Shown: positions 1 through 43,743 of the stretch, piece by piece
Numbering within the stretch: the first letter of the stretch is position 1
How the letters are laid out: every line of letters begins with the position of its first letter
NCBI GenBank assembly: GCA_013334825.1
Contig: JAAXWR010000002.1
Location: 155,009 to 219,008 of the forward strand
Reading direction: 5' to 3'
Source of the DNA: Candidatus Yonathbacteria bacterium
Lineage (GTDB): Bacteria; Patescibacteriota; Minisyncoccia; Phycocordibacterales; JACNGX01
Length of the DNA: 64,000 nucleotides
Position numbers and translations under genes: made by a program
Notes under the pieces: model-generated
Database searches by the model: none
The model's input: only the letters and a program-made list of their open reading frames with translations
What the model was told of the DNA's origin: nothing

Positions 1-13
1 CAAGCACGAAACA

Positions 14-109
14 TGCTGCGGCGTTCGAATCCCTCACGCGAGCCAAGCAGTTGGCTCGCTCCTCTCCGCATAAGAAAATCACTGCCCCAAAAAGGGCGGG
101 ATTTTCAAA
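14..109 (+). repeat. Ser-tRNA-3'-like structured element, copy 1 of 3. It reads CGTTCGAATCCCT, then a hairpin, then CTCTCCGC and AAYAAAAATC, then a second hairpin followed by GGATTTT.
   Basis: Direct visual alignment with copies at 3791-3886 and 35625-35714. The TTCGAATCCCT and CTCTCCGC blocks match the T-arm and acceptor of the tRNA-Ser(GGA) 3' end at 4974-4995. Confidence 0.6.
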
Positions 110-489
110 TGCGGTGTGTATTGGACGAAGTTCGAATGTATTTTGGACAAAATCCGCAGGATTTTGACGAATGACACTTGCACCTCGCACGCTCCCTTCG
201 GTCGCGATTCCAAAACTAAAAATTTTCCTTCCTTTATTTAAGATTTTCGGCGGGGGGTGTGTGGGGCCGATAAAAAGTGAAAGGAAATTTTTGGTTTTGC
301 TGCGCCGTTTCAGTCTCCGAAAAAAGCAATCTTATTTTAACATTTTTATTTGCTCTTTTCTCCATCTTCGCAGTGAGACGAGACACATTCAATTCGGTTG
401 CATTGGATCAAATCTTATTTTGCTTGCCATGCCTAGTGTGTGCATAATCCCGCTTCGCGAGATTACTCACTTAAAAATCTTATATCAAA

Positions 490-523
490 GAAAAAAGCGC
501 CGTACCCGAAGGTCGTGCGCTTG
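490..523 (-). terminator. Rho-independent terminator for the 565-1449 gene.
   Basis: On the minus strand the hairpin AAGCGCACGACC..GGTACGGCGCTT is followed by TTTTTTC. It sits about 40 nt past the stop codon. Confidence 0.55.
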
Positions 524-564
524 TATTGCCGAGACACGGAAATTGTCGATTAGACCAGAGCGAG

Positions 565-1449
565 TCAGAACCCTTCGAGGGTGGCCTGCGCGACACGCCG
601 ACCGAGATCTTCGTTTTTGAAGCGCTTTGCTCTTATCGAGGGTCTACCTGGGAAGAAACCGCCGCTCACCGAGAAGCCGTGAGCGACGCCGCTCCGAATC
701 GCGTCGAGAACTTCGTCCTGGGTCCAACTGTACAAACCGTTGACAGGATTCCGAATTTCCTCGGTGTGGCCGAGTAATTCGAAGAACTGCGCTTCTTCTT
801 TGATGTTGCCGAACGTGATCGGCTCGTTGTGGAAGAACTTCCAGACCGGGCCACGCTCGATGAGAACCATGTCGTCCTCGCTCGCCGACGTGTACCACCC
901 TGCGCCGAGCTCGCTCGAGATATTGTACGCGGGGTACTTGGTCCCGACCTGCGTTTGCTCAGTGAGATAGCGGTAGTCGATCCTGACGATTTGAAAAACA
1001 AAAACGTCGAGGTCGCGATTGGGTAGCATCTCGCCGTACATGTCCGTGACAGTGGAACGGTCACATGTGCGAACGAAGTCGCCCTCCCAAAACGGCGTCT
1101 CGGGAAGATTCCGAAGGAACTCCTTGCTACGCCAGTTGTCCGGCTGCTCCTGCTGGAGCTTGCGGAAGGCGGAGAGGCGACGCTCGTACTCGTCCTTGTT
1201 GGTGAGCTCGAGGCGGCCACTCGACTCGAAATACTCCTTGCCGTTCGGAAGCTGGACATTTACCCACGCACGGTTGATGTACACCCCCGGCTTGAAGCCG
1301 AAGTTGTCGAGTCGCCCGTAGTGAATCTCGGAGAAGCCGAGGATTGTGGCCTTTGTCCCGTCGGGACAAGGGTTGTAGCCACACTCCCGATTCTCCTGCG
1401 GAATTGTGATGATAACTTCGTCGCCGATTCTCGTTAATTCGTCGATCAT
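565..1449 (-). CDS. Hypothetical protein of 294 aa, encoded in a GC-rich segment.
   Basis: Long ORF with no recognised motif. Its GC content is visibly higher than the flanking DNA. Its upstream region is a 146-bp direct repeat that also lies upstream of the unrelated 2575-3450 gene. Confidence 0.6.
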   Translation of the reverse strand: MIDELTRIGDEVIITIPQENRECGYNPCPDGTKATILGFSEIHYGRLDNFGFKPGVYINRAWVNVQLPNGKEYFESSGRLELTNKDEYERRLSAFRKLQQEQPDNWRSKEFLRNLPETPFWEGDFVRTCDRSTVTDMYGEMLPNRDLDVFVFQIVRIDYRYLTEQTQVGTKYPAYNISSELGAGWYTSASEDDMVLIERGPVWKFFHNEPITFGNIKEEAQFFELLGHTEEIRNPVNGLYSWTQDEVLDAIRSGVAHGFSVSGGFFPGRPSIRAKRFKNEDLGRRVAQATLEGF

Positions 1450-1540
1450 GTTTGTCTCCTTTCATTTTTTTAGTTTGAAATGTGCGGTTGGCGCATCACA
1501 ATAGCCACCAAAATTCTGCGTTTAACCTAGCATATCTGAA

Positions 1541-1686
1541 CCATTCTGTCAAGAGCAAAACGGTTCTATTGAAGCTTTGATTTGAACTTATTTTGATATT
1601 GGTAGTTACGTAGCTTTTTTCGGATAAAACATACAGCAGTGCATGTTTTATTCTCTTACCCCTCTGCGTTCGAATCCCTTCCTCTC
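1541..1686 (+). repeat. 146-bp direct repeat, copy 1. The second copy is at 3538-3683 and differs at only about 2 positions.
   Basis: Near-identical strings read directly from the sequence. Both copies end in CCCTCTGCGTTCGAATCCCTTCCTCTC, which matches the tRNA-Ser(GGA) T-arm and acceptor. Each copy lies immediately upstream of a different minus-strand gene start. Confidence 0.9.
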
Positions 1687-1835
1687 TCGCAACATATAAA
1701 TCGCCGGGCGAATTCTCGCCCGGCTCATTATGTTGCGGTGAGGCTCGGTCTAGAACCCAGCCATCCCAAGCAGTGTAAGGCTTCTTTGGCGAGTTTGCGA
1801 CTCGACGATTTTTTTGGGAAGACGGCCGCGATTAG

Positions 1836-2150
1836 TTAGAGCAATTGCCACAAAAGAGCAATTCCCAAGATTATCCCCGGCATAATATAATCTGCAGTAA
1901 ATCTCACTTTGTGACGGTCAAACTGAAATCCAAGTTTTTCAAGCACGTGCGCATAAAATGTCATTTCACGCCTCTGGGATTTAAATTGCCACTTCGTAAG
2001 AATGCAATCACCCACAAGCAATAATTGGAGATAGTAAAGAATTATACCGATCAGAATAAGCTCCCAAGGAAGCCAAAACGGTGAACTCCAAACAGCAATA
2101 ATCAGTAGAAGATGTGTCCAGAAGAGTATGCCGAAATCTTTATCATACAT
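1836..2150 (-). CDS. Small hydrophobic membrane protein of 104 aa.
   Basis: The ORF has two or three predicted hydrophobic helices. No motif was recognised. Confidence 0.4.
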   Translation of the reverse strand: MYDKDFGILFWTHLLLIIAVWSSPFWLPWELILIGIILYYLQLLLVGDCILTKWQFKSQRREMTFYAHVLEKLGFQFDRHKVRFTADYIMPGIILGIALLWQLL

Positions 2151-2512
2151 ATGTTTATTGTAACATACTCAATATTCTTAGAGCATCGGTTGCGTAACAT
2201 CGTCTCACGTTCCTGCGGAGAGGGAGGGGACACTCACTGCTCGGACTTCGCTCGCGGGTAGCTCGCTCGTCCTGTACTCGCGAAACCCACGGTTTCGCGG
2301 GCATCCCTGCCTACCGGCAGGCAGGCTTCACGGGTAACCAGCGTCTCCTCACAGGAGCAGTACACCTTTTGGATGAATCGTTCGGACAAGTCCTCCAATT
2401 CATCTCAAAAGGTCTTGCGAAAGCTCCAAGTGTTCGCTTTCTCACCCCGACCCCCTCCGCGTTCGAATCCCTTCCTCTCCTTATTCACTTCGTTCACTGA
2501 TTGTGGTAACTC

Positions 2513-2554
2513 AATAAAAAAAGAGGGTGGAAAGTTTGGTAACTTCCCACCCTC
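2513..2554 (-). terminator. Rho-independent terminator of the lipoprotein gene.
   Basis: Minus-strand hairpin GAGGGTGG..CCACCCTC followed by TTTTTTTATT, immediately downstream of the stop at 2575. Confidence 0.65.
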
Positions 2555-2574
2555 AGTTGAGAGAGTTTGCGCTC

Positions 2575-3450
2575 TCACTTTGGAATGACGAACTGCTGGC
2601 CGTCGGCGGTTTTCACAAGTTGATAACCATTGTCTACCTTCGACCACTTCTTGGTCACCTTACCGCGAAGTTCCGACAAGCGACCTTTTACGATGAGCGA
2701 GCCAGTACTCAATTGCGCGTTCCAAGCATCGCTGGTCTTCTCATACACCTCGCGTGGAACTTCGAGCGTGATGTCGTGGGTGTTCGCCGCGTTGCGGATG
2801 TGCTTCGTGAGGTCGAGCGTGAACGTGGAGTTCTCGACCCGAATATTCACGAAGTATCGGTTGAGCGACTGGCGATCCACGAACTGGTATTCCGCAAGCG
2901 GCTTTTCCAGAACGTAGGTTCGCGCAACACCAGCAAACGGAACGGTAAGCAGTTGGCGACCGCTGGAACGCAACTGTTGCATCGCTTCGTCGTACTGCTC
3001 CTTGTTGATTTCGGTCTGCGTTCCATTTCTGTCCGCCCAGAAGTACTGGCTTTCGATCTTCTTCTCTGTGGGACGCACGACGTACTCGGCGATCTCGTCA
3101 TTGAAGACAAAACCCCAACCGTCGCCCTTACTCGAGACCTCCTGTCCGATCTCATACTCGTTGAAGGTTTTTTCATCGACGATAAGGGTGCGCGACTCGG
3201 CGGCCATCGCGTTCTTCGCATGAGCCCAAAGGTCGAGAGTGAATTGCTCCTTCTCGAATTTGAGAGTTACGAGGAACAACTTCTCTTCTCGAAGCTCGGT
3301 TGCATTCGCGAGAACCGCGACCACATCCGGTTTCGGATTTTCTGCCGGAGCCGCAGCAACTTGCCGCGACTGTTGATTCGGTTGCTGATCGCACCCCGCA
3401 AAGAACGCGAGGGCAACAATCAAGGTAAATAGGCTGGCTGACTTTCTCAA
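2575..3450 (-). CDS. Lipoprotein of about 291 aa with an internal duplication of roughly 140 aa.
   Basis: A TTG start at 3450 sits 6 nt downstream of AAGGAGA. The signal peptide is LRKSASLFTLIVALAFFAGC and ends in a lipobox. The FTLDL..H..NA motif occurs twice. Confidence 0.6.
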   Translation of the reverse strand: MRKSASLFTLIVALAFFAGCDQQPNQQSRQVAAAPAENPKPDVVAVLANATELREEKLFLVTLKFEKEQFTLDLWAHAKNAMAAESRTLIVDEKTFNEYEIGQEVSSKGDGWGFVFNDEIAEYVVRPTEKKIESQYFWADRNGTQTEINKEQYDEAMQQLRSSGRQLLTVPFAGVARTYVLEKPLAEYQFVDRQSLNRYFVNIRVENSTFTLDLTKHIRNAANTHDITLEVPREVYEKTSDAWNAQLSTGSLIVKGRLSELRGKVTKKWSKVDNGYQLVKTADGQQFVIPK

Positions 3451-3537
3451 TAGTTTCTCCTTATCTTTCGTTGTGAATGTGCGGTTTTTTGAGGCAAAAT
3501 AGCTCAATGAATCATGTGATATCTTAATATATGAAAA

Positions 3538-3683
3538 CCTTTCTGTCAAGAGCAAAACGGTTCTATTGAAGCTTTGATTTGAACTTATTTTGATATTGGT
3601 AGTTACGTAGCTTTTTTCGGATAAAACATACAGCAGTACATGTTTTATTCTCTTACCCCTCTGCGTTCGAATCCCTTCCTCTC
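3538..3683 (+). repeat. 146-bp direct repeat, copy 2. It pairs with 1541-1686.
   Basis: Direct alignment. It is followed at 3662-3725 by an inverted repeat CGAATCCCTTCCTCTCC..GGAGAGGAAGGGATTCG with a 17-bp stem. Confidence 0.9.
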
Positions 3684-3790
3684 CTTATTCACTTCGTTCA
3701 TTGCGGAGAGGAAGGGATTCGCTCCTTACAGGAGCAGTGCAGGTTTCCCATTTTTTCGGAGCATAGCTCCTCAAAAATATGGGAGAACCT

Positions 3791-3886
3791 TTTCGAATCC
3801 CTTCCCGCAGGCAAAGCAGCTTGCCTGCTCTCTCCGCTCAACAAAAATCGCACCCCTCAAAGGGTGCGGATTTTTGTACGAGCGGG
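3791..3886 (+). repeat. Ser-tRNA-3'-like structured element, copy 2 of 3.
   Basis: TTCGAATCCCTTCC, then hairpin GCAGGCAAAGCAGCTTGCCTGC, then CTCTCCGC and AACAAAAATC, then hairpin GCACCCCTCAAAGGGTGC, then GGATTTTTG. The blocks are collinear with 35625-35714. Confidence 0.7.
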
Positions 3887-4078
3887 AACGATATCCGCAA
3901 CTTTGAACCGGCAAATCGTTTAAGCTTTATCAGACTTGATAAGATTATACGAAATTTGCGACTAATATACAAAGAAAATCCTGCTTATTTTGATATTCCA
4001 CAATTCGCACAAAAGGTTTACTGAATTTACCGCTATAATCCGCTACAACCAGCTATATATAGCGTATCAGATAAAATT

Positions 4079-4873
4079 CTACTTTTTATCATAGACAGAT
4101 TCGAATTGAATATTTTGATCACTTATTCTAATAACTTCGCCACTTTTTATTGGAATCGAGTACTCTTGTGTCTGTGGATTAAAATTTTTCCCAGATAACG
4201 CTATTTTTGAGATAATCTTGCCAACCACCTTAGGATCACGGAGTTGATGCTCCATAATTTTTAATTCTGTCCGATGTTTTATATCGCCTACGCCGAAGAC
4301 CAGGACTTCTTGGTGCATCCTTGTATTAACAGACCCTGGACTTATCATAATGATTGTTACGTCTTGATTTTCTGGTTTACCGCTAAAATCTTTTAACCAT
4401 TGTTCCATACGTAATTTACCTTCTCTGTATGTTTCAATTCCACCACCAAGATCAGTATGGGCAGTATCTGAAGTTATGAAAACTATTCTGCCATGATTTT
4501 CCCTTAATGATTCAATTGCTGTCCGCGACAAAGCAATATTTGCAACCTCGTTTACCTTAAAGGCATATTCCTTGTCTTCCTTTAGACCAGTTACCCCTGC
4601 ATTTAATATTAGAACATCTATCCCACCCAATTCTGAAATACTCTCATCAATAAATTCTTGAGCATTATGTCTATCAGCCAAATCGACTTGTTTGGCATGT
4701 ATATCTGGATGAAGTTTTTTTATTTCTTTAATCTTACTTTCGGTACGAGCACAGATAGCGATTTCATGACCCTCGTCAAGTAAATCGTCAGCAATAGCTC
4801 TCCCAATGCCTTCTGTTCCACCAGTTAAGACAACCTTTTTTGTTTCAAACATATTTTGATTTAGTTTTTCCAT
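4079..4873 (-). CDS. Short-chain dehydrogenase/reductase (SDR) family oxidoreductase.
   Basis: N-terminal TGGTEGIGRAIA Rossmann motif, SDR-like overall layout and an ISPGSVNT region. The start was moved to the ATG at 4873 (MEKLNQ..). Confidence 0.8.
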   Translation of the reverse strand: MEKLNQNMFETKKVVLTGGTEGIGRAIADDLLDEGHEIAICARTESKIKEIKKLHPDIHAKQVDLADRHNAQEFIDESISELGGIDVLILNAGVTGLKEDKEYAFKVNEVANIALSRTAIESLRENHGRIVFITSDTAHTDLGGGIETYREGKLRMEQWLKDFSGKPENQDVTIIMISPGSVNTRMHQEVLVFGVGDIKHRTELKIMEHQLRDPKVVGKIISKIALSGKNFNPQTQEYSIPIKSGEVIRISDQNIQFESVYDKK

Positions 4874-4973
4874 TATAGTTCGAATCCCTTTAGAGTTCAG
4901 GCATTTTATCAAATTTCTGTTTTGAAAAGTAGCTTAAAACAAGGATATTTTAATGCACACTTTCCAAAACTTC

Positions 4974-5063
4974 TGGCGGAGAGGAAGGGATTCGAACCCT
5001 TGGTACCGTTACCGATACACCACCTTTCCAGGGTGGCCCATTCGACCGCTCTGGCACCTCTCC
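4974..5063 (-). tRNA. tRNA-Ser (anticodon GGA) with a long variable arm. CCA is encoded.
   Basis: Manual fold: acceptor GGAGAGG/CCTCTCC, anticodon loop CUGGAAA, T-loop TTCGAAT, discriminator G. Confidence 0.85.
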
Positions 5064-8220: not shown

Positions 8221-8326
8221 TGCTTCATGCTTCGTGATTCGTGCTTCGAGTATCCGTCCCTATAACCCATCTCCTCTAACTCCTTTCCTACACGAATGCG
8301 TATTTTCTGTTATACTTTCTTGTATT

Positions 8327-21150: not shown

Positions 21151-21478
21151 CAAAGGACGCCCTTCAGGGGCGTCCTTTGTGCGGAATGAGCGAGCAAACT
21201 GCTTTGCTCGCGTTGGGAATCGGACGGCTCGGCGATGTTGTCGCTTGCGACGACCGCGAGCCGCGTCCAGGAGTACTTAGCGGATTGCGAATAAGTGAAG
21301 CAATACGCTTAGTAACTCCGGGACGATTCCCGCATTCCGCACCCAGCCCTACTTTCATAACAAACGCATGTACACTACATGCGTTTGTTATGTGATTATT
21401 AGAAATATATATTATTGAGTGTTTAATGAAAGTAGAGCTGGGTGCGGAATGAGCGAGCAAACTGCTTGATATACATTA
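21151..21478 (+). repeat. Composite element downstream of tRNA-Gly. It contains a terminator hairpin, an inverted copy of the tRNA 3' end split by a CTGC-loop hairpin, an H2 module, a direct copy of the 3' end, a roughly 105-bp CCCAGCC hairpin and a second truncated inverted copy.
   Basis: 21180-21227 reads TGCGGAATG[AGCGAGCAAACTGCTTTGCTCGC]GTTGGGAATCGGACGG. 21319-21341 reads CGGGACGATTCCCGCATTCCGCA. 21342-21447 reads CCCAGCCCTACTTTCAT..ATGAAAGTAGAGCTGGG. The 24-bp string TGCGGAATGAGCGAGCAAACTGCT occurs at both 21180 and 21447. Confidence 0.8.
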
Positions 21479-24406: not shown

Positions 24407-24670
24407 CATATTGAAAAACACCCTTTAGGGTGTTTTTCAATATGTCCCTTCGGAGTAAGCCGACTGCTCGGCTTACGTCGGGAGTCGAACTGAGCACCAC
24501 TTTTGCTGTTGCAAAAGTGGTGCTCGACGTCCAGCGGTACTTATGGAAATGCGAGTGCCCGAAGCATTTCCATTAGTAACCGCGGGACGATTCCTGCCGA
24601 GGGGTTTTTGATTGTGAGCGTATCCCGCGAACCTTTCCGAGCAGTGAGTGTTCCTGCCGAGGGGACAGGC
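24407..24670 (+). repeat. Composite element downstream of tRNA-Arg. It contains a 21-bp-stem hairpin, an inverted 3' copy split by a CTGC-loop hairpin, and H1, H2 and degenerate direct 3' copies.
   Basis: GGGACATATTGAAAAACACCC..GGGTGTTTTTCAATATGTCCC, then TTCGG[AGTAAGCCGACTGCTCGGCTTACGT]CGGGAGTCGAAC. H1 is GAGCACCACTTTTGC..GCAAAAGTGGTGCTC. H2 is GTCCAGCGGTACTTAT..TTAGTAACC followed by GCGGGACGATTCCTGCCGAGGGG. Confidence 0.8.
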
Positions 24671-25264: not shown

Positions 25265-25400
25265 CCCAGCCCTACATTCATAATAAACGCATGTACACCA
25301 CGTGCGTTTATTTTGTGATTGTTGCATTTTTACATATTGCCACCTTTCATGAATGTAGGGCTGGGTGCCGAGGGAGGAAGGCAACTGCTTGCCCACAGTT
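25265..25400 (+). repeat. Composite element downstream of tRNA-Phe. It is a roughly 100-bp CCCAGCC hairpin module followed by an inverted acceptor copy and a CTGC-loop hairpin.
   Basis: CCCAGCCCTACATTCATAATAAACGCATGTACACCACGTGCGTTTATT..CATGAATGTAGGGCTGGG, then GTGCCGAGGGAGGAAGGCAACTGCTTGCCC. Confidence 0.8.
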
Positions 25401-25492: not shown

Positions 25493-25747
25493 ATGACTAC
25501 GCTTAATATAAGAATTGAAGAAAAAATTAAAGTGAAGGCAAATAAAACATTATCTTCACTTGGGCTTGATATGTCTACGGCAGTTAAGATATTTTTGAAT
25601 CAAGTTATTATAGAAGACGGTTTACCGTTTACCCCTACGAATAATAAACTTATGCTAAAAGAACGTTGGGATAAACAAACTGCTCATGCATTGAAGTATG
25701 GAAAAAATTACAAAAATGGTAAAGATGTATTGTCTGACATAGTGTAA
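25493..25747 (+). CDS. dinJ: Type II antitoxin, DinJ/RelB family.
   Basis: MTTLNIRIEEKIKVKANKTLSSLGLDMSTAVKIFLNQVIIEDGLPF matches the DinJ RHH N-terminus. Confidence 0.8.
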   Translation: MTTLNIRIEEKIKVKANKTLSSLGLDMSTAVKIFLNQVIIEDGLPFTPTNNKLMLKERWDKQTAHALKYGKNYKNGKDVLSDIV

Positions 25748-25758
25748 TATTTTTTTGT

Positions 25759-26040
25759 ATGTATACGATACGTCGTTCAAAAGACTTTGAATTATCTATT
25801 AAACGTCTAAAACATGCAGGGTTAAAGCCGTCAGTAAAACATGATATTGAGTGTGTTATCGATTTGCTTGCTTTAGGGGAAAAGTTACCCGCGAAATATA
25901 GAGATCACAAATTACAAGGAGAACTTTCAGCGTATAGAGAGTGTCATATAAAAGGAGATTTGCTTTTGATTTATATGATAAGAAAAGAGTACATGATATT
26001 GATTCTTGTTGATATCGGTTCTCACGCGCAATTATTTTAA
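25759..26040 (+). CDS. yafQ: Type II toxin, YafQ (RelE/ParE superfamily).
   Basis: DHKLQGELSAYRECHIKGDLLLIY..GSHAQLF matches the YafQ consensus, and it lies immediately downstream of dinJ. Confidence 0.8.
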   Translation: MYTIRRSKDFELSIKRLKHAGLKPSVKHDIECVIDLLALGEKLPAKYRDHKLQGELSAYRECHIKGDLLLIYMIRKEYMILILVDIGSHAQLF

Positions 26041-35488: not shown

Positions 35489-35624
35489 ATAAAACTATGA
35501 TACCATGTCGATTGATTTTTAGGGAGGGATTTGTCCTGGAGTTACTAATTGAAATGTTCTATGTATTCTCATTTTAATAAGTACTCCTGGACGCGGCTCG
35601 CATTTCTCGCGAGCGAGAAATATG

Positions 35625-35714
35625 CTCCGCCGTTCGAATCCCTCCTCGCAGGCAAAGCAGTTTGCCTGCTCTCTCCGCCCAACAAAAATCGCACCCTAAA
35701 GGTGCGGATTTTTG
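35625..35714 (+). repeat. Ser-tRNA-3'-like structured element, copy 3 of 3.
   Basis: CGTTCGAATCCCTCC, then hairpin TCGCAGGCAAAGCAGTTTGCCTGC, then TCTCTCCGCC and CAACAAAAATC, then GCACCCTAAAGGTGC and GGATTTTTG. It is preceded by the palindrome GCATTTCTCGCGAGCGAGAAATATGC. Confidence 0.7.
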
Positions 35715-35787
35715 AACGGGCGGGCATCGTGGTTTAAATACCAGAGCGGTGATACATCATAAGGGCAATTTGAGATAATTTCAATTA

Positions 35788-36776: not shown

Positions 36777-37742
36777 CTATAATATCGACTCGAAGTATTC
36801 TTTAAACTCCTCAGAAGAAGCTGTTTGGTATTTTTCATAAAGGCTTTTAATTTCCTCATCCGAGAAAACAGATATAACGTCATGTGTTATTTTTAGGTTT
36901 GGTAGCTCTTTCTTTAGGAGAAGATAGAGGGCTATTTTAGGCAACAAATATTTTGACTCCTCCATTCCCTTAAAATGAATATTGCGTTCTGTTGCCATTC
37001 GAGGATCAAAGTTGTATGGCATGCTTGAGAATTCTCGACTTACATCATTCCCTGATTTTTTCATCTCGTGATATAGGCGAGTGTGAAAACCTCCCATTGA
37101 AAAAAGTATCTTCAAGTTTTCTTTTTTCTGGAGATCAGGATTCTGCTTCAATGTTTCAGCCAAAGCTTCTGGAAGTTTTTCTAAAATATAATCTTCGCGA
37201 GCCTTCTGCATGTCGGACTCAAATTTTGATACATTACCGATTCTTCGAAGCGTTTCCTCATAGGGCAAGGACTTATTTATGAGGTTGTTATAAGCACCAT
37301 TGGATGCATACAGACCCATAAGGTTTTTAAAGACGACATTATCATTTGGAACGTCTACAAGCATTACTTTCTTCTCTGATTTATACAAACCCTCGAGTAA
37401 CGAAGCATAGAAGTCTTTCCACAAAAATGGCTTTCCATTCTGCTTTTCCATATCCATCGCCTGTTCAGGGGTCAGAGTACCATTTGATACTTCGTTGAAA
37501 ATATCGAGTCGAGCAGAATCCCAACCGGCGTTTTCCTGAATGAGAATATCTGCGTTTTTTAGGCGTTCACCCACCGCTTGTCCGTTTTCTGCTGTTGCGT
37601 GTTTGTGAAAGAAGAAATTGGTTTCAATTTTGGGCACGTTTTCAATACCTTTTTCTCTCAGCAAAGAACCTAAATCATTCTGAGCCGAAGATTTTTCTAA
37701 GTCTAAATTATTGCTTTTTAACCCAAAATTTTGTCCTTCCAT
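36777..37742 (-). CDS. Hypothetical protein of 321 aa, inside a repeat-bounded islet.
   Basis: ORF with no recognised motif. It is flanked by the 31-bp direct repeats. Confidence 0.45.
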   Translation of the reverse strand: MEGQNFGLKSNNLDLEKSSAQNDLGSLLREKGIENVPKIETNFFFHKHATAENGQAVGERLKNADILIQENAGWDSARLDIFNEVSNGTLTPEQAMDMEKQNGKPFLWKDFYASLLEGLYKSEKKVMLVDVPNDNVVFKNLMGLYASNGAYNNLINKSLPYEETLRRIGNVSKFESDMQKAREDYILEKLPEALAETLKQNPDLQKKENLKILFSMGGFHTRLYHEMKKSGNDVSREFSSMPYNFDPRMATERNIHFKGMEESKYLLPKIALYLLLKKELPNLKITHDVISVFSDEEIKSLYEKYQTASSEEFKEYFESIL

Positions 37743-37840
37743 GTTTTTATTTTAGCTTAAAATTACCCTTTTGGTAATCATGTCGTCGGGTCGCACCACA
37801 GTCATATGACCATGGGTCTGCCGATACTAAGTTCTTAATG

Positions 37841-37927
37841 CGGAGAGGGAGGGATTTGAACCCTCGAACGAGTTACCTCGTTGCCGCATTTCGAGTGCGG
37901 TGCCTTCGACCACTCAGCCACCTCTCC
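37841..37927 (-). tRNA. tRNA-Ser (anticodon CGA).
   Basis: Manual fold: acceptor GGAGAGG/CCTCTCC, anticodon stem-loop CCGCA-CUCGAAA-UGCGG, long variable arm, T-loop TTCAAAT. Confidence 0.85.
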
Positions 37928-38186
37928 AATATCTTAACTACACTCTTTCGCTATGATACATGAAAGGGTGCCTTTCCGCGACATCCCCGTTCTTTGCTGC
38001 GCAAAGAGCGGGGTGCGCGGACCCGCCCAGCTCTTTCAAAAGGGCTGGACGGGCGACCACAGAGCCACCTCTCCATTTCTTCTGCGTCTTTCTGTATTCG
38101 TTCCGCGAAGTTCTGCGTAATTCGTATATCCTAGCACCTTTTGCCATTTTTTCAAAACATGATACAATGCATCGGTCAAATAAATA

Positions 38187-38349
38187 CATGGCCCTATCGT
38201 TCCCGGTGGAGAAACCAAGTAAAACTTTGTTTCTCCACCGAGGACCCGCGATATTGCAACCAAATCAAAGATTTGGGCAATATCGGGGCTAACGGTTTCA
38301 ATTGACACTGAACACCAAAAGATTGAAAAATAATTAAAAACTAGTTCAT
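38187..38349 (+). repeat. Duplication of 15 bp spanning the tRNA-Glu 5' end, flanking a roughly 140-bp hairpin-containing insert.
   Basis: CATGGCCCTATCGT at 38187-38201 and again at 38347-38361. The intervening sequence contains GGTGGAGAAAC..GTTTCTCCACC and GCGATATTGC..GCAATATCG hairpins. Confidence 0.65.
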
Positions 38350-38421
38350 GGCCCTATCGTCTAACGGTTAGGACATCGCCCTTTCACGGCGGTAATCGGG
38401 GTTCGATTCCCCGTAGGGTCA
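38350..38421 (+). tRNA. tRNA-Glu (anticodon TTC).
   Basis: Manual fold: acceptor GGCCCTA/TAGGGTC with one G-U pair, D-arm GTCTAACGGTTAGGAC, anticodon loop CUUUCAC, T-arm CGGGG-TTCGATT-CCCCG. Confidence 0.85.
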
Positions 38422-38819
38422 CAAAACGCCAGCGCCGAAGTATATCTTCGGCGCTGTTGCGTTTTGTAGACCCTACGGGGAATCGAACGGCGCAAGGCGG
38501 TATACAAGATGCGCAAGATTGCGCATGCTTGTCGCTGCGCCGCGTCCAGCGGTACTTATCAGAATGCGAGCATTGGCGAAGCATTATGATTAGTAACCGC
38601 GGGACGATTCCCCGTAGTGCCTTTCGTGAGAATCGAACCGAGCACCACTTTTGCAATGGCAAAAGTGGTGCTCGATGTCCAACAGTATCCAGCCCCACTT
38701 TCATAATAAACACATGTGCTGTGATAGATTTTTTATCCGAGTTATGAGTATTGTTTATGAATGAAGCCTCTCATGAAAGTGGAGCTGGATAACCGTGGGG
38801 ACGATTCCCCGTAGAGTCA
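38422..38819 (+). repeat. Composite element downstream of tRNA-Glu. It contains a long hairpin, a contiguous inverted copy of the tRNA 3' end, a GGCGCAAGGCGGTATACAAG box, H2, a direct 3' copy, H1, a roughly 100-bp CCAGCC hairpin and a second direct 3' copy.
   Basis: 38467-38490 TAGACCCTACGGGGAATCGAACGG is the reverse complement of the tRNA's 3' end. 38599-38621 reads GCGGGACGATTCCCCGTAGTGCC. 38797-38819 reads GGGGACGATTCCCCGTAGAGTCA. The modules align with those of the Gly, Arg and Val loci. Confidence 0.8.
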
Positions 38820-38888
38820 GTGAAAAAAACTACACCCCATCGCTTAATTTTGCTATACTATCCGCATACTCATAATTACGAAACATAT

Positions 38889-40339: not shown

Positions 40340-40445
40340 GGATACGATGCGGAACCTACGCGGACGTGATGCTGAACGAACGCGGAAAGTCGCGGAACCT
40401 ACGCGGACACGATGCAGATCAGACGTGGAATGTCGCGGAACGGGA
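40340..40445 (+). repeat. Tandem repeat of about 44 bp, roughly 2.3 copies (GCGGAACCTACGCGGACRYGATGC..).
   Basis: Read directly. A related ACGCAGAAT x3 repeat lies at 41495-41540. Confidence 0.6.
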
Positions 40446-41562
40446 TAAAAAATAGCATGAGGAGATTAAAAATTAGGAGATTACATGTTAAACGATAACA
40501 TACACGACGGATTGCTCTACGAGCAATCCGTCGTGTTGGTATATATAAAAACCGCTCTTGTGAGCGGTTGTGAAAAAAGGTCGCACGGGATGGTACGTGC
40601 GGGAGTTTGCGACCGTCCCATGGTCTTGGTCATGAGTGATGTCTGAAATTGCAGTGGAGCGCATTCAGAAACATATCGGGCGCGCCGTGCGACCTTTGAA
40701 ATCAAAAAAGAACTCATTGGAAATATCTTCTCCGCTTGAGACATGTTCGGACCGTGTCCGGATAACCGATTTCGGTCGCCCCTACTCTCGTAACTGTGCG
40801 CAAGCGGAGAAAGAATCAGCATACGAAATAAGATATTCTTTGCTCAGGATATATTGATAGGGTATGTTTGTCAATGACACGATACAAAAGGAAACCCCGC
40901 CGTTTTGGGCGGGGGGTGCGGGCTAGGGTCAGAGAGACCTTACCGCAATAAAAGAACAATACACTTTCCTTACTTGATATGCCCGTTTTGGGCGTCTCCC
41001 GGCAAGATGGAAATGGGGCCGGTAAGATTTTTCATCGTAAGGTTGAGCGGGTGTATCCGCATCGTGTGCCGTGCCACAGGAAGTGGCGTTTACTGACCTT
41101 ATCCATACGATCCCGTCTGCCTGACGGTCGGATAGATCAGAAAATTGTTGTCCTTGTTCCCTACCTAAAATAAAACAAGGATTTGGAGCTGATAACTCCA
41201 TGTATCCAACGTGACGGGGGATACAAGGACAACTTGGCAATTGCCAACCTCTCTTTGTTACCTTGCCCAAGGGAGAGAGGGTGGAGATAGGCGTTCCAAT
41301 GCCGTGAGTTCCATCGCTAGCTCAAGCCCGAAGGCGAGCGGCGCTCACGGTTTTTTAATGTGGCCATGCGTAATGGCCGCGGACCCCCGTATCCCGCAAT
41401 GAGCCAATGTGGCGTATGGGCGGGAACCTGAGGATGCTAGTATTATATACCAAAACAATTTTTTTGTCAAGCGTTTTTGTATATACGCAGAATCTATGCG
41501 GACACTACGCAGAATGACGCAGAATTTACGCAGAAGAGTTTTCATTTCGTGGAGATTGGTTA

Positions 41563-41652
41563 CGAAGTACGAACTTATACGCTTGCCCTGCACACCACGT
41601 GGCATGCTGTGCATCCTACGTGGTGCACAGTGCTAGGGAACATACGAACACT
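41563..41652. repeat. Palindromic CACGTGG-rich element, copy C.
   Basis: GCCCTGCACACCACGTGGCATGCTGTGCATCCTACGTGGTGCACAGTGCTAGGG flanked by GTACGAAC / CATACGAACA. Confidence 0.75.
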
Positions 41653-41853
41653 ACTGAATACAAATAATCATGTTGGTGAGTTTGTGTTCGTATGTTCGTA
41701 CTCGTTCATACTTCGTAACCCCTCATTCCTGTCCGTCTCTATAAACCTATCACCTCTAACCTCTTTCCTATTTTCGTCCACTCTTATCACCTCTAACCTA
41801 TTTCCTGCCCCCTGCTTCTTGCTTCGTGATTCTCATGTTATGATATTCTCCAT

Positions 41854-43281: not shown

Positions 43282-43407
43282 TACGTGAAGCATGAATCAA
43301 GAAGCAAGAATCAAGGATACGGAAAAGTGACGCTCCGCACCGCCTCTCTGTTTTTTGTGGAACATATTACATCACATTTTTTCTTAAAAAAAGAGGACCG
43401 TCCTTTC

Positions 43408-43500
43408 TGTTCGAGCCCCGTGTCACCACGCAAATACAAACAATCGCAAGGGCATGCCTTGCGATTGTGTATTTGTGGGCGACACAGGACTCGTCCCGCG
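43408..43500 (+). repeat. Direct repeat of about 93 bp, copy 1. It duplicates the downstream hairpin, the inverted T-arm copy and the last 18 nt of tRNA-Val. Copy 2 is at 43676-43768.
   Basis: The two copies are identical over roughly 90 nt (CGTTCGAGCCCCGTGTCACCACGCAAATACAAACAATCGCAAGGGCATGCCTTGCGATTGTGTATTTGTGGGCGACACAGGACTCG). They bracket a CCAGC hairpin module at 43503-43606. Confidence 0.9.
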
Positions 43501-43743
43501 GTTATCCAGCTCCACTTTCATAATAAACACATACGCCATGATAGATTTTTTATCCGAGACGTAGGTATTGTTTATAGATGAAGTCTCTCATGAAAGTGGG
43601 GCTGGATACCGTTGGACGCGGCGCGGCGACAAGCACTCGCGAGTAAACTCGCTCGTCTTGTATACCGCCTTGCGCCGTTCGAGCCCCGTGTCACCACGCA
43701 AATACAAACAATCGCAAGGGCATGCCTTGCGATTGTGTATTTG

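Follow-up and report, generated by a model that had tools for sequence, protein, structure and literature searches.

CPR bacteria have tiny genomes with few recognised mobile elements, and their gene exchange is poorly understood. In tRNA operons of E. coli, short tRNA-linked repeats that carry a piece of the tRNA end are known as tyrT repeats or RtT RNA (Rfam RF00391). The tycheposon islands of Prochlorococcus represent tRNA-targeted integrative elements, which leave partial-tRNA scars (10.1101/2020.12.28.424599). In Caldiarchaeum subterraneum, a 5' tRNA fragment is found 1.8 kb upstream of the tRNA-Thr gene, and a recombinase-encoding element is situated between both (PMC3293823). Folded single strands serve as att sites in integrons (attC; PMC5027507) and in CTXphi (attP1/attP2; PMC3089051, PMC3442271), where attP is formed by folding of two dif-like sites that are inverted and spaced by about 90 bp (PMC3089051). 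Finally, TIGR arrays consist of tandem short repeats with dual spacers and box C/D-like motifs, and they adjoin a Tas (Nop-domain) gene (PMC12045711). The present study deals with two neighbouring tRNA genes that are each preceded by a partial copy of their own 5' end split by hairpins. We consider it reasonably probable that both 5' copies were left as scars when small, non-autonomous modules inserted into the 5' part of the tRNA genes that they target.

Both genes, tRNA-Ser(CGA) and tRNA-Glu(UUC), are located in one intergenic region of 1.15 kb (37743-38888) of the window, i.e. the whole 64,000-nt stretch of Candidatus Yonathbacteria DNA that was analysed, and are divergently transcribed. 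Relatives (loci L030-L036) were obtained by a metagenome scan with the 5' 43-mer of tRNA-Glu; around the locus, L033, L034 and L036 share about 90% identity with the window. The layout is as follows (window coordinates, strand, feature and its basis).

36777-37742, minus: neighbouring protein gene that bounds the tRNA-Ser(CGA)/tRNA-Glu(UUC) intergenic region (product 100% identical to a protein of a Yonathbacteria MAG in NCBI)
37840-37927, minus: intact tRNA-Ser(CGA) (ARAGORN; Rfam tRNA model, 58.6 bits)
37928-37966, minus: leader S, directly upstream of tRNA-Ser and within the repeat unit (39 nt, recurring in each unit of L033, L034 and L036)
37967-37974, minus: copy of tRNA-Ser positions 22-29, AAGGCACC (sequence match)
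37975-38021, minus: hairpin hp2 of the Ser module (fold; kept in L033, L034 and L036)
38022-38053, minus: hairpin hp1 of the Ser module (fold; a different stem in its place in L033)
38054-38075, minus: displaced tRNA-Ser copy, positions -1 to 21 (sequence match, 20/22 identical)
38128-38168, both strands: conserved back-to-back promoter core (promoter scan; conserved in L019 and L033)
38187-38200, plus: ancestral CAT and tRNA-Glu positions 1-11, beside the ancestral promoter (in L033 the same flank continues into the intact tRNA-Glu)
38201-38245, plus: hairpin hp1 of the Glu module (inverted repeat and fold)
38246-38288, plus: hairpin hp2 of the Glu module (inverted repeat and fold)
38289-38297, plus: copy of tRNA-Glu positions 12-20, CTAACGGTT (sequence match)
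38298-38346, plus: new leader S', carried by the Glu insert (no counterpart in L033)
38347-38422, plus: CAT and intact tRNA-Glu(UUC), the tRNA at 38350-38422 (ARAGORN, Rfam tRNA model, L033 alignment)
38423-38468, no strand assigned: bidirectional terminator hairpin, stem 38430-38456 (terminator prediction)
38469-38488, minus: inverted tRNA-Glu copy, positions 52-71 (sequence match, 20/20)
38489-38541 and 38543-38607, plus: conserved hairpin modules HP-B and HP-A, respectively (pattern and fold across loci)
38605-38622, plus: slightly decayed direct copy of the tRNA-Glu 3' end from position 55/56 (sequence match)
38630-38820, plus: second 3' unit downstream of tRNA-Glu (91% identical to L033 5953-6137)

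The repeat at tRNA-Glu, CATGGCCCTATCGT, comprises 14 nt (3 nt of flank and tRNA positions 1-11), and its copies at 38187-38200 and 38347-38360 are identical in 14/14 positions. The duplication claimed in an earlier note on this DNA is thus borne out, with ends at 38200 and 38360 and the coordinates at most one base off. The insert described there as 140 bp with two hairpins has the hairpins, but its length is 146 nt; it starts with them, and they are strong (arms 38199-38220/38224-38245 and 38246-38257/38277-38288). The minus-strand copy of the tRNA-Ser(CGA) 5' end is likewise present at 38054-38075, where the sequence reads TGGAGAGGTGGCTCTGTGGTCG and agrees with the tRNA at 20 of 22 positions, 19 of 21 inside the tRNA. 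Beside it, the expected CTGC-loop hairpin was recovered as hp2, which has an outer stem TCCGCG/CGCGGA and an apical stem CTTTGC-GCA-GCAAAG, corresponding to a CTGCG loop on the plus strand. In both cases the tRNA copy resumes past the hairpins, with CTAACGGTT for Glu and AAGGCACC for Ser. The units consist of tRNA positions 1 to x, two hairpins, positions x+1 to 20 or 29, a leader of 39-49 nt and the intact gene, and the tRNA sequence is broken in the D-arm, past position 11 in Glu and past position 21 in Ser. Chance, against which the earlier note had proposed to check these matches, does not explain them. Exact matches with the tRNA 5' end extend to 14 nt for Glu (mean of the shuffle null 6.2, maximum 12) and 13 nt for Ser (maximum 11), and these lengths were never attained in 2000 dinucleotide-preserving shuffles of the spacer. 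Moreover, the folds are far more stable than those of shuffled sequence, with z = -7.5 for the Glu spacer and -5.6 for the Ser module.

The copies adjoin the intact gene in the same orientation, as would be expected for decayed tRNA pseudogenes that arose by ordinary whole-gene duplication and later received unrelated hairpin insertions. However, every copy stops by about position 30-34 and all are interrupted at the D-arm. The 5' units do not conform to a tRNA cloverleaf with ARAGORN or the Rfam tRNA model, and within 37928-38349 no tRNA or pseudo-tRNA was called by either of them, even at E<=10 in the case of Rfam, i.e. a cloverleaf remnant was not detected. Furthermore, the identity of the Glu pair points to a recent event, yet the remainder of the supposed duplicate is wholly missing. 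A pseudogene origin appears highly improbable to us. The search with Rfam at gathering thresholds returned nothing except tRNAs, and at E<=10 it gave weak sub-threshold matches alone (tRNA-related cross-matches over the two genes and chance miRNA or sRNA matches elsewhere), with no match to RtT, tmRNA, Y-RNA or ribozymes.

The comparison with relatives, also proposed in the earlier note, strengthens its claim that the 5' ends of tRNAs are copied here and not the 3' ends alone: the Glu insertion is missing from close relatives, and the Ser unit varies in copy number. L033, L034 and L036 have no Glu module, and there the same conserved promoter adjoins the intact tRNA-Glu. In the alignment of window positions 38076-38430 with L033 5640-5820, the promoter region, flank and tRNA correspond to each other, and the only difference of this kind is a clean gain of 160 nt in the window, made up of 146 novel nt and the second CATGGCCCTATCGT, which demonstrates an insertion and defines its boundaries. 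The conserved core contains TTGCCA-16-TG-TACAAT on the plus strand (38141-38168) and TTGAAA-16-TAGGAT on the minus strand (38155-38128), both found by promoter scan. The plus-strand promoter, TTGCCA-16-TGATACAAT, is directly followed by the intact tRNA-Glu both in L033 and in L019, a more distant relative, and by the distal copy in the window. Since it runs straight into the intact gene in both relatives, the distal (promoter-proximal) copy at 38187-38200 can be recognised from the alignments as the ancestral 5' end. We infer that the first 11 nt of the functional tRNA-Glu and its leader arrived with the insert, which would have supplied positions -3 to 11 of the intact gene. The new leader S' carries a promoter-like site of its own, TTGACA-18-AAAAAT (38302-38331; promoter scan). 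The empty site is expected to read ...AAATACAT / GGCCCTATCGTCTAACGG, and a circle or tandem junction ...CTAGTTCATGGCCCTATCGT / TCCCGGTGGAG. No other part of the window or of the fetched loci matches the 146 novel nt, hence the insert did not arise by local (tandem) duplication.

The Ser unit is common to the window, L033, L034 and L036, with a unit length of 137-147 nt and a tandem period of 137 nt. Its copy number varies, from one in the window to one plus a partial copy in L033 and L036 and at least two plus a partial copy in L034, and hp1 has been swapped for a different stem between lineages. The two mismatches in the distal copy and the sharing with these three relatives indicate that the Ser unit is older than the Glu insertion. 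In L019 and L035 the divergent Ser/Glu pair is kept with spacers of just 174 and 89 nt, respectively, and with neither module; the 3.4 kb between tRNA-Glu and proS are also missing from L019. Synteny via the neighbouring 321-aa protein was discarded, because its homologues P0002, P0005 and P0006 are found in other contexts and are uninformative for the locus.

The Glu module is known from one assembly, so that an assembly artefact might be suspected in this metagenome-derived genome. No independent confirmation of the module came from further assemblies of that sample, as the Logan contigs either lack the necessary length or stop within the repeats; contig L001 stops inside the Ser module at about window position 38038, and the same-sample short-read contigs are fragmented nearby. 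On the other hand, the Ser module was independently assembled in three JGI metagenomes, the 14-nt repeat is shorter than assembler k-mers, the insert is unique with intact flanks, and analogous modules are known from many independent assemblies, one of which is a complete Campbellbacteria genome. An assembly error is therefore regarded as extremely improbable.

Split 5' copies are not restricted to this locus. In a k-mer scan of 52 tRNA calls from the window and the fetched Patescibacteria loci, they were detected at 6 distinct tRNA genes, whereby the number of distinct genes scanned is below 52 because several loci overlap. Among these are a tRNA-Ser(GCU) gene with three tandem 101-nt units (L002), one tRNA-Ser (L008), a tRNA-Lys(CUU) (L013) and a tRNA-Leu(UAG) in the complete Campbellbacteria genome (L021), the latter three each with an upstream split copy. 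All have positions 1 to x, 55-95 nt of hairpins, positions x+1 to about 30, a leader of 20-50 nt and the tRNA, with periods of 101-163 nt. Without exception the copies are direct and upstream; the first block ends at positions 11-21, the second at about 29-34, and the break is always in the D-arm. L013 and L021 have a conserved 24-nt insert module in common, GGTTCTGAGCGAAGCGAAGAAATT, despite different genomes and tRNAs, while no insert sequence is common to the window's two 5' modules or shared with that module. By their sequence anatomy, the two window copies represent two instances of one recurring module type.

The tandem arrays of identical units, 137 nt in L034 and 101 nt in L002, resemble products of unequal crossing-over or slippage, and repeats of 14-21 nt are in the range of microhomology. 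It might be argued that slippage, template switching or unequal crossing-over at hairpins beside highly transcribed tRNA genes generated the modules as passive by-products of replication errors, with no dedicated element or enzyme. However, the 146 nt at tRNA-Glu are not of local origin, the conserved insert is common to L013 and L021, and the breakpoints fall in the D-arm every time. The sequence of the downstream hairpin HP-A is also conserved among distant Patescibacteria, and its junction with the tRNA copy is always found at the same T-loop position. Hence, replication errors seem quite unlikely as the source.

Hairpin-linked copies of the 3' end occur just downstream of 6 of the 7 window tRNAs, and those of the seventh, tRNA-Ser(GGA), are scattered across about 5 kb among cassette-like ORFs. 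The order in these 3' units is the tRNA, a terminator or a hairpin of about 105 nt, an inverted copy of positions 72 to 53, HP-B, HP-A and a direct copy from position 55/56; at times, a CTGC-loop hairpin with a 9-bp stem interrupts the inverted copy. The second 3' unit behind tRNA-Glu is composed of an inverted T-loop piece, an HP-B variant, a long HP-A enclosing a hairpin of about 105 nt (38686-38791) and a direct 3'-end copy (38802-38820). The HP-A pattern was found in 19 loci of diverse Patescibacteria, and it is situated 100-415 nt downstream of a tRNA in 17 of 26 copies (those with an upstream tRNA on the same strand). Nearly all HP-A copies are followed by the second half of the T-loop and 3'-end-like sequence from position 55/56, which wholly or partly matches the upstream tRNA where such a tRNA exists. 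The stems of HP-A show covariation, and in 23 of 25 cases their folding is better on the tRNA-sense strand; its loops are rich in GCGAAGC-type mini-hairpins, and its conserved internal loop GAG...CGAA could form tandem sheared G-A pairs. A relation of HP-A to TIGR-Tas via a K-turn was considered and rejected; the internal loop deviates from the K-turn consensus, and a Tas gene is not present.

Perfect hairpins with a CTGC loop are the commonest perfect tetraloop hairpins (13 of 94 in 288 kb). The loop reads CTGC on the tRNA-sense strand for every such hairpin with a nearby tRNA, the strand of four of them being loosely assigned because they are 1-5.5 kb away from the nearest tRNA. Such hairpins occur in 3' units, with 9-bp stems, as well as in the 5' units of L008 and L021, a feature that connects both types of unit. 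In the 5' inserts, complementarity to their own tRNA 5' end does not exceed chance (best match P = 0.24-1.0), so that they hold no inverted copy. Hence, their architecture differs from that of the 3' modules, and the grammar of the latter ('direct, inverted, direct') was rejected for them. Most 3' units are found behind a bidirectional intrinsic terminator and have no promoter of their own, and some are kilobases away from the tRNA with cargo genes between. Two ORFs, for example, are enclosed between tRNA-Ser(CGA) and an orphan unit at 35510-35715. The cargo of the downstream units is variable and comprises NUDIX proteins, phosphatases, toxin-antitoxin systems and proteins without assigned function; that of L029 includes NUDIX and histidine phosphatase.

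The 5' modules sit between promoter and gene and must therefore be transcribed, in tRNA sense, which makes an RNA-level role possible. Hence, they might be structured pre-tRNA leaders, and the 3' modules might be trailers or tRNA-like minihelix RNAs, with a role in tRNA processing or stability or as decoys. In this case the tRNA mimicry would be due to binding of enzymes that also act on the tRNA (RNase P or Z, CCA-adding enzyme), or to contact with this tRNA. The conserved promoter upstream, the very stable structures, the strand-specific, tRNA-sense orientation of the hairpins and the possible sheared pairs in the conserved HP-A loop are in line with such functional RNAs. However, presence/absence and copy number are polymorphic among relatives of about 90% identity, hence the modules are dispensable, and more distant relatives have none. 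In addition, the two window modules have no common insert sequence, no Rfam match was obtained, and most 3' units are found behind a terminator and without promoter, some of them beyond kilobases of cargo genes. A functional RNA is considered unlikely as the main explanation.

The comparisons thus show that a module of 137-160 nt has entered each gene in the D-arm, behind position 11 (tRNA-Glu) or position 21 (tRNA-Ser). It is composed of two stable hairpins, a short continuation of the tRNA, a new leader and fresh first 11-21 nt of the tRNA; since the module brings a fresh 5' end, the gene is made intact again on its promoter-distal side. Its former 5' end, with the hairpins now behind it, remains beside the old promoter. 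For the insertion of small modules, which we prefer, the following further events can be proposed. New insertions would land beside the gene and push older ones outward, thereby giving rise to tandem arrays, and displaced copies would decay afterwards, as may be seen in the two mismatches of the Ser copy. The modules would be non-autonomous mobile DNA served in trans by a recombinase encoded elsewhere, which would recognise the tRNA-gene segment from position 1 to about 30 and the extruded hairpins. Probably the same machinery handles the downstream hairpin modules, because the CTGC-loop hairpin on the tRNA-sense strand is common to both.

The Pfam search covered 47 of the 72 window ORFs of at least 70 aa (about two thirds), including all ORFs flanking the locus, and it revealed no recombinase, transposase or reverse transcriptase near the locus or elsewhere among these 47; IntI is not encoded nearby, and Phage_integrase had no match in the same set. 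No recombinase was found in the examined cargo of L029 either, and the cargo of the other loci (Pfam, PADLOC, PHROGs) yielded just an unrelated DDE transposase (L026) and, adjoining tRNA-Ser in L008, a large serine recombinase. Since no recombinase was found, the mechanism is one that we infer. Scans of IMG/VR with HP-A and with the 5' module of L013/L021 gave no matches and no free (circular or viral) form.

Furthermore, these observations are of relevance for work on CPR genomes. The data point to a recurrent insertion of structured DNA at both ends of tRNA genes, by which the single-copy tRNA is kept intact. If a dedicated enzyme is behind the modules, it would represent a new site-specific system for folded DNA with sites set by the tRNA sequence; it would explain the formation of islands in CPR genomes and might be used as a tool. 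Moreover, short-read assemblies are interrupted by the modules at tRNA loci, and errors in the annotation of tRNAs and pseudogenes can result from them.

Among the described systems, the tyrT/RtT repeats are similar in that short repeats beside a tRNA gene carry a piece of the end of that tRNA. However, they contain 3'-end pieces in direct tandem downstream of the gene, whereas the pieces described here are from the 5' end, upstream and split by hairpins, and have no Rfam match. MITEs also differ, since the modules show no TIRs at their ends, the repeat is 14-22 nt instead of 2-10 bp, and the Glu insert is unique among the window and loci. Compared with TIGR arrays, no Tas gene was found, and the units are tRNA-derived and located beside their own 'target'. 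Hairpin modules of 100-160 nt that restore tRNA 5' ends, as well as HP-A/HP-B units, were not found described in Rfam or the literature searched.

The 3' units, not the 5' modules, resemble integron attC and CTXphi attP sites in their inverted target-like sequences around a structured spacer of about 100-130 nt, their strand-specific structure, the variable stems with conserved ends, and cassette arrays without own recombinase. Their layout of direct copy, cargo (or terminator), inverted copy, structured spacer and direct copy corresponds to integron and CTXphi products and would fit an integration via folded single-stranded att sites. Likewise, the CTXphi-type IMEX geometry (inverted target-like sites, forked hairpin, order) is present in the 3' units and not in the 5' modules. 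However, their target is the T-loop and 3' end of tRNA instead of attI or dif. The attC R-box consensus GTTRRRY does not apply to the 3' units because the T-loop junction reads GTTCGAA/T; R''/R' boxes (RYYYAAC ... GTTRRRY) were not recognised, the 5' inserts having no inverted target copy, and the target is a tRNA gene, not the chromosomal dif site on which XerC/XerD act. Since the 5' inserts have no inverted copy, the folded-hairpin att model of the 3' units does not fit them and their geometry differs. Tentatively, and with considerable doubt, it might be envisaged that CPR bacteria own an integron-like system, in which tRNA genes are docking sites at the D-arm and T-loop. Modules and gene cassettes would enter via folded-DNA att sites (HP-A/HP-B three-way junctions and CTGC-loop hairpins) with a trans-acting recombinase, and the 5' modules would represent a new insertion geometry, by which the gene regains its 5' end and receives another leader or promoter.

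The hallmark of att scars, a direct repeat of a tRNA segment together with a regenerated tRNA, is found here with 14 nt for Glu and 22 nt for Ser and with the empty site in L033. As in tycheposons, an insertion in a tRNA gene leaves a partial tRNA copy as direct repeat while the intact gene is regenerated, successive insertions would push older ones outward, decayed fragments accumulate, and the genomes are streamlined. In tycheposons and classical att scars, however, the 3' part is duplicated, whereas here it is the 5' end (-3 to 11 or -1 to 21) with a break in the D-arm. Tycheposons bear an integrase, while the inserts here are non-coding, 100-163 nt long and without integrase; classical att scars also differ in that the displaced copy is split by hairpins here and the 3' units add an inverted copy. 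A parallel for a 5' fragment left upstream of a functional gene by mobile DNA is the Caldiarchaeum tRNA-Thr, a locus that is also heterogeneous in the natural population. However, that case is archaeal and involves a 1.8-kb element with its own recombinase and an intron gain, whereas the modules reported here are bacterial, tiny, non-coding and present at many tRNAs. Collectively, our data support the notion that the 5' modules are tRNA-targeted insertion scars related in outcome to these systems, with a real chance that they mark an undescribed recombination system.

Hairpin units lie downstream of six of the seven tRNA genes in the window. These 3' units are ordered as terminator or long hairpin, inverted copy of the tRNA 3' end, the conserved hairpin modules HP-B and HP-A, and finally a direct copy of the 3' end. 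The tRNA-Phe gene has only the first part of this arrangement, and at tRNA-Ser(GGA) scattered 3'-end fragments stand in place of the ordered unit. One unit is an orphan: two ORFs and a distance of 2.2 kb separate it from tRNA-Ser(CGA), which lies upstream of it. Distant members of the Patescibacteria share a conserved HP-A motif.

21152-21470: 3' unit
24408-24670: 3' unit
25266-25390: 3' unit
35510-35715: orphan 3' unit with its own terminator
38423-38820: 3' unit
43400-43742: 3' unit

Two types of hairpin were recognized. The first is the CTGC-loop hairpin, which in the 3' units is placed between the inverted acceptor piece and the inverted T-arm piece; its stem of exactly 9 bp is variable in sequence and covarying, its tetraloop is invariant and reads CTGC on the tRNA-sense strand, and it looks like a protein-recognition hairpin. 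The hairpins of the second family, about 100-105 nt long with the ends CCAGCCCYACTTTCAT...ATGAAAGTRGRGCTGG, are found either immediately behind the tRNA 3' end, where the CCA is then supplied by the hairpin, or within the HP-A tip. In their placement they act like a palindrome that inserts itself into the middle of other palindromes.

38-59: CTGC-loop hairpin, 9-bp stem
near 3796-3817: CTGC-loop hairpin, imperfect copy
21190-21211: CTGC-loop hairpin, 9-bp stem
24455-24476: CTGC-loop hairpin, 9-bp stem
35648-35669: CTGC-loop hairpin, 9-bp stem
21343-21441: hairpin of about 100-105 nt
25266-25364: hairpin of about 100-105 nt
38686-38791: hairpin of about 100-105 nt
43506-43605: hairpin of about 100-105 nt

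The tRNA-Glu gene, together with the 3.4-kb island that is missing from the more distant relative L019, is bracketed by clusters of the octamer TTCTGCGT, which occurs 10 times in the window versus 2.3 expected. These clusters and a second, CGCGGAAC-like one may represent protein-binding sites or element ends. A large palindrome is located at the far end of the island, immediately upstream of proS. In L019 (around 3740), the prolyl-tRNA synthetase ORF proS contains 14 nt, GGCCCTATCGTCTA, that repeat the 5' end of tRNA-Glu in inverted orientation, 1.4 kb downstream of the tRNA-Glu gene; this match may be due to chance.

38080-38118, plus strand: TTCTGCGT cluster, two copies
40340-40441: CGCGGAAC-like repeat cluster
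41485-41535, minus strand: TTCTGCGT cluster, four copies in inverted orientation
41548-41720: large imperfect palindrome, GGTTACGAAGTACGAAC ... GTTCGTACTCGTTCATACTTCGTAACC

The region downstream of tRNA-Ser(GGA), 1-5063, has a GC content of 0.49 versus about 0.43 and looks like a cassette array. It contains at least six tRNA-Ser(GGA) 3'-end fragments spaced by 0.1-1.2 kb, with ORFs lacking known domains in between, and in short-read data the contigs end at the borders of the cassettes (locus L039).

about 1500-1680: repeat of about 170 nt, first copy
about 3520-3680: repeat of about 170 nt, second copy

Among the relatives, GCA_031413715.1 (L008, 2878-4867) has a tRNA-Ser gene with an unusual anticodon, ACT, and a 5' module, the split copy of a tRNA 5' end. 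This module contains a 12-bp CTGC hairpin. At its 3' end, the tRNA gene overlaps with the end of a large serine recombinase gene (539 aa), and the locus may be an intact element residing at a tRNA-Ser gene. In locus L002, from another of the Patescibacteria, the tandem 5' units of tRNA-Ser(GCU) include 100 N in a row (8221-8320). The repeats have probably left a gap in the assembly here, which makes any count of the units provisional. Finally, directly behind the hairpin unit downstream of tRNA-Phe in the window, a RelB/YafQ toxin-antitoxin pair is encoded at 25493-26040, which is typical island cargo.
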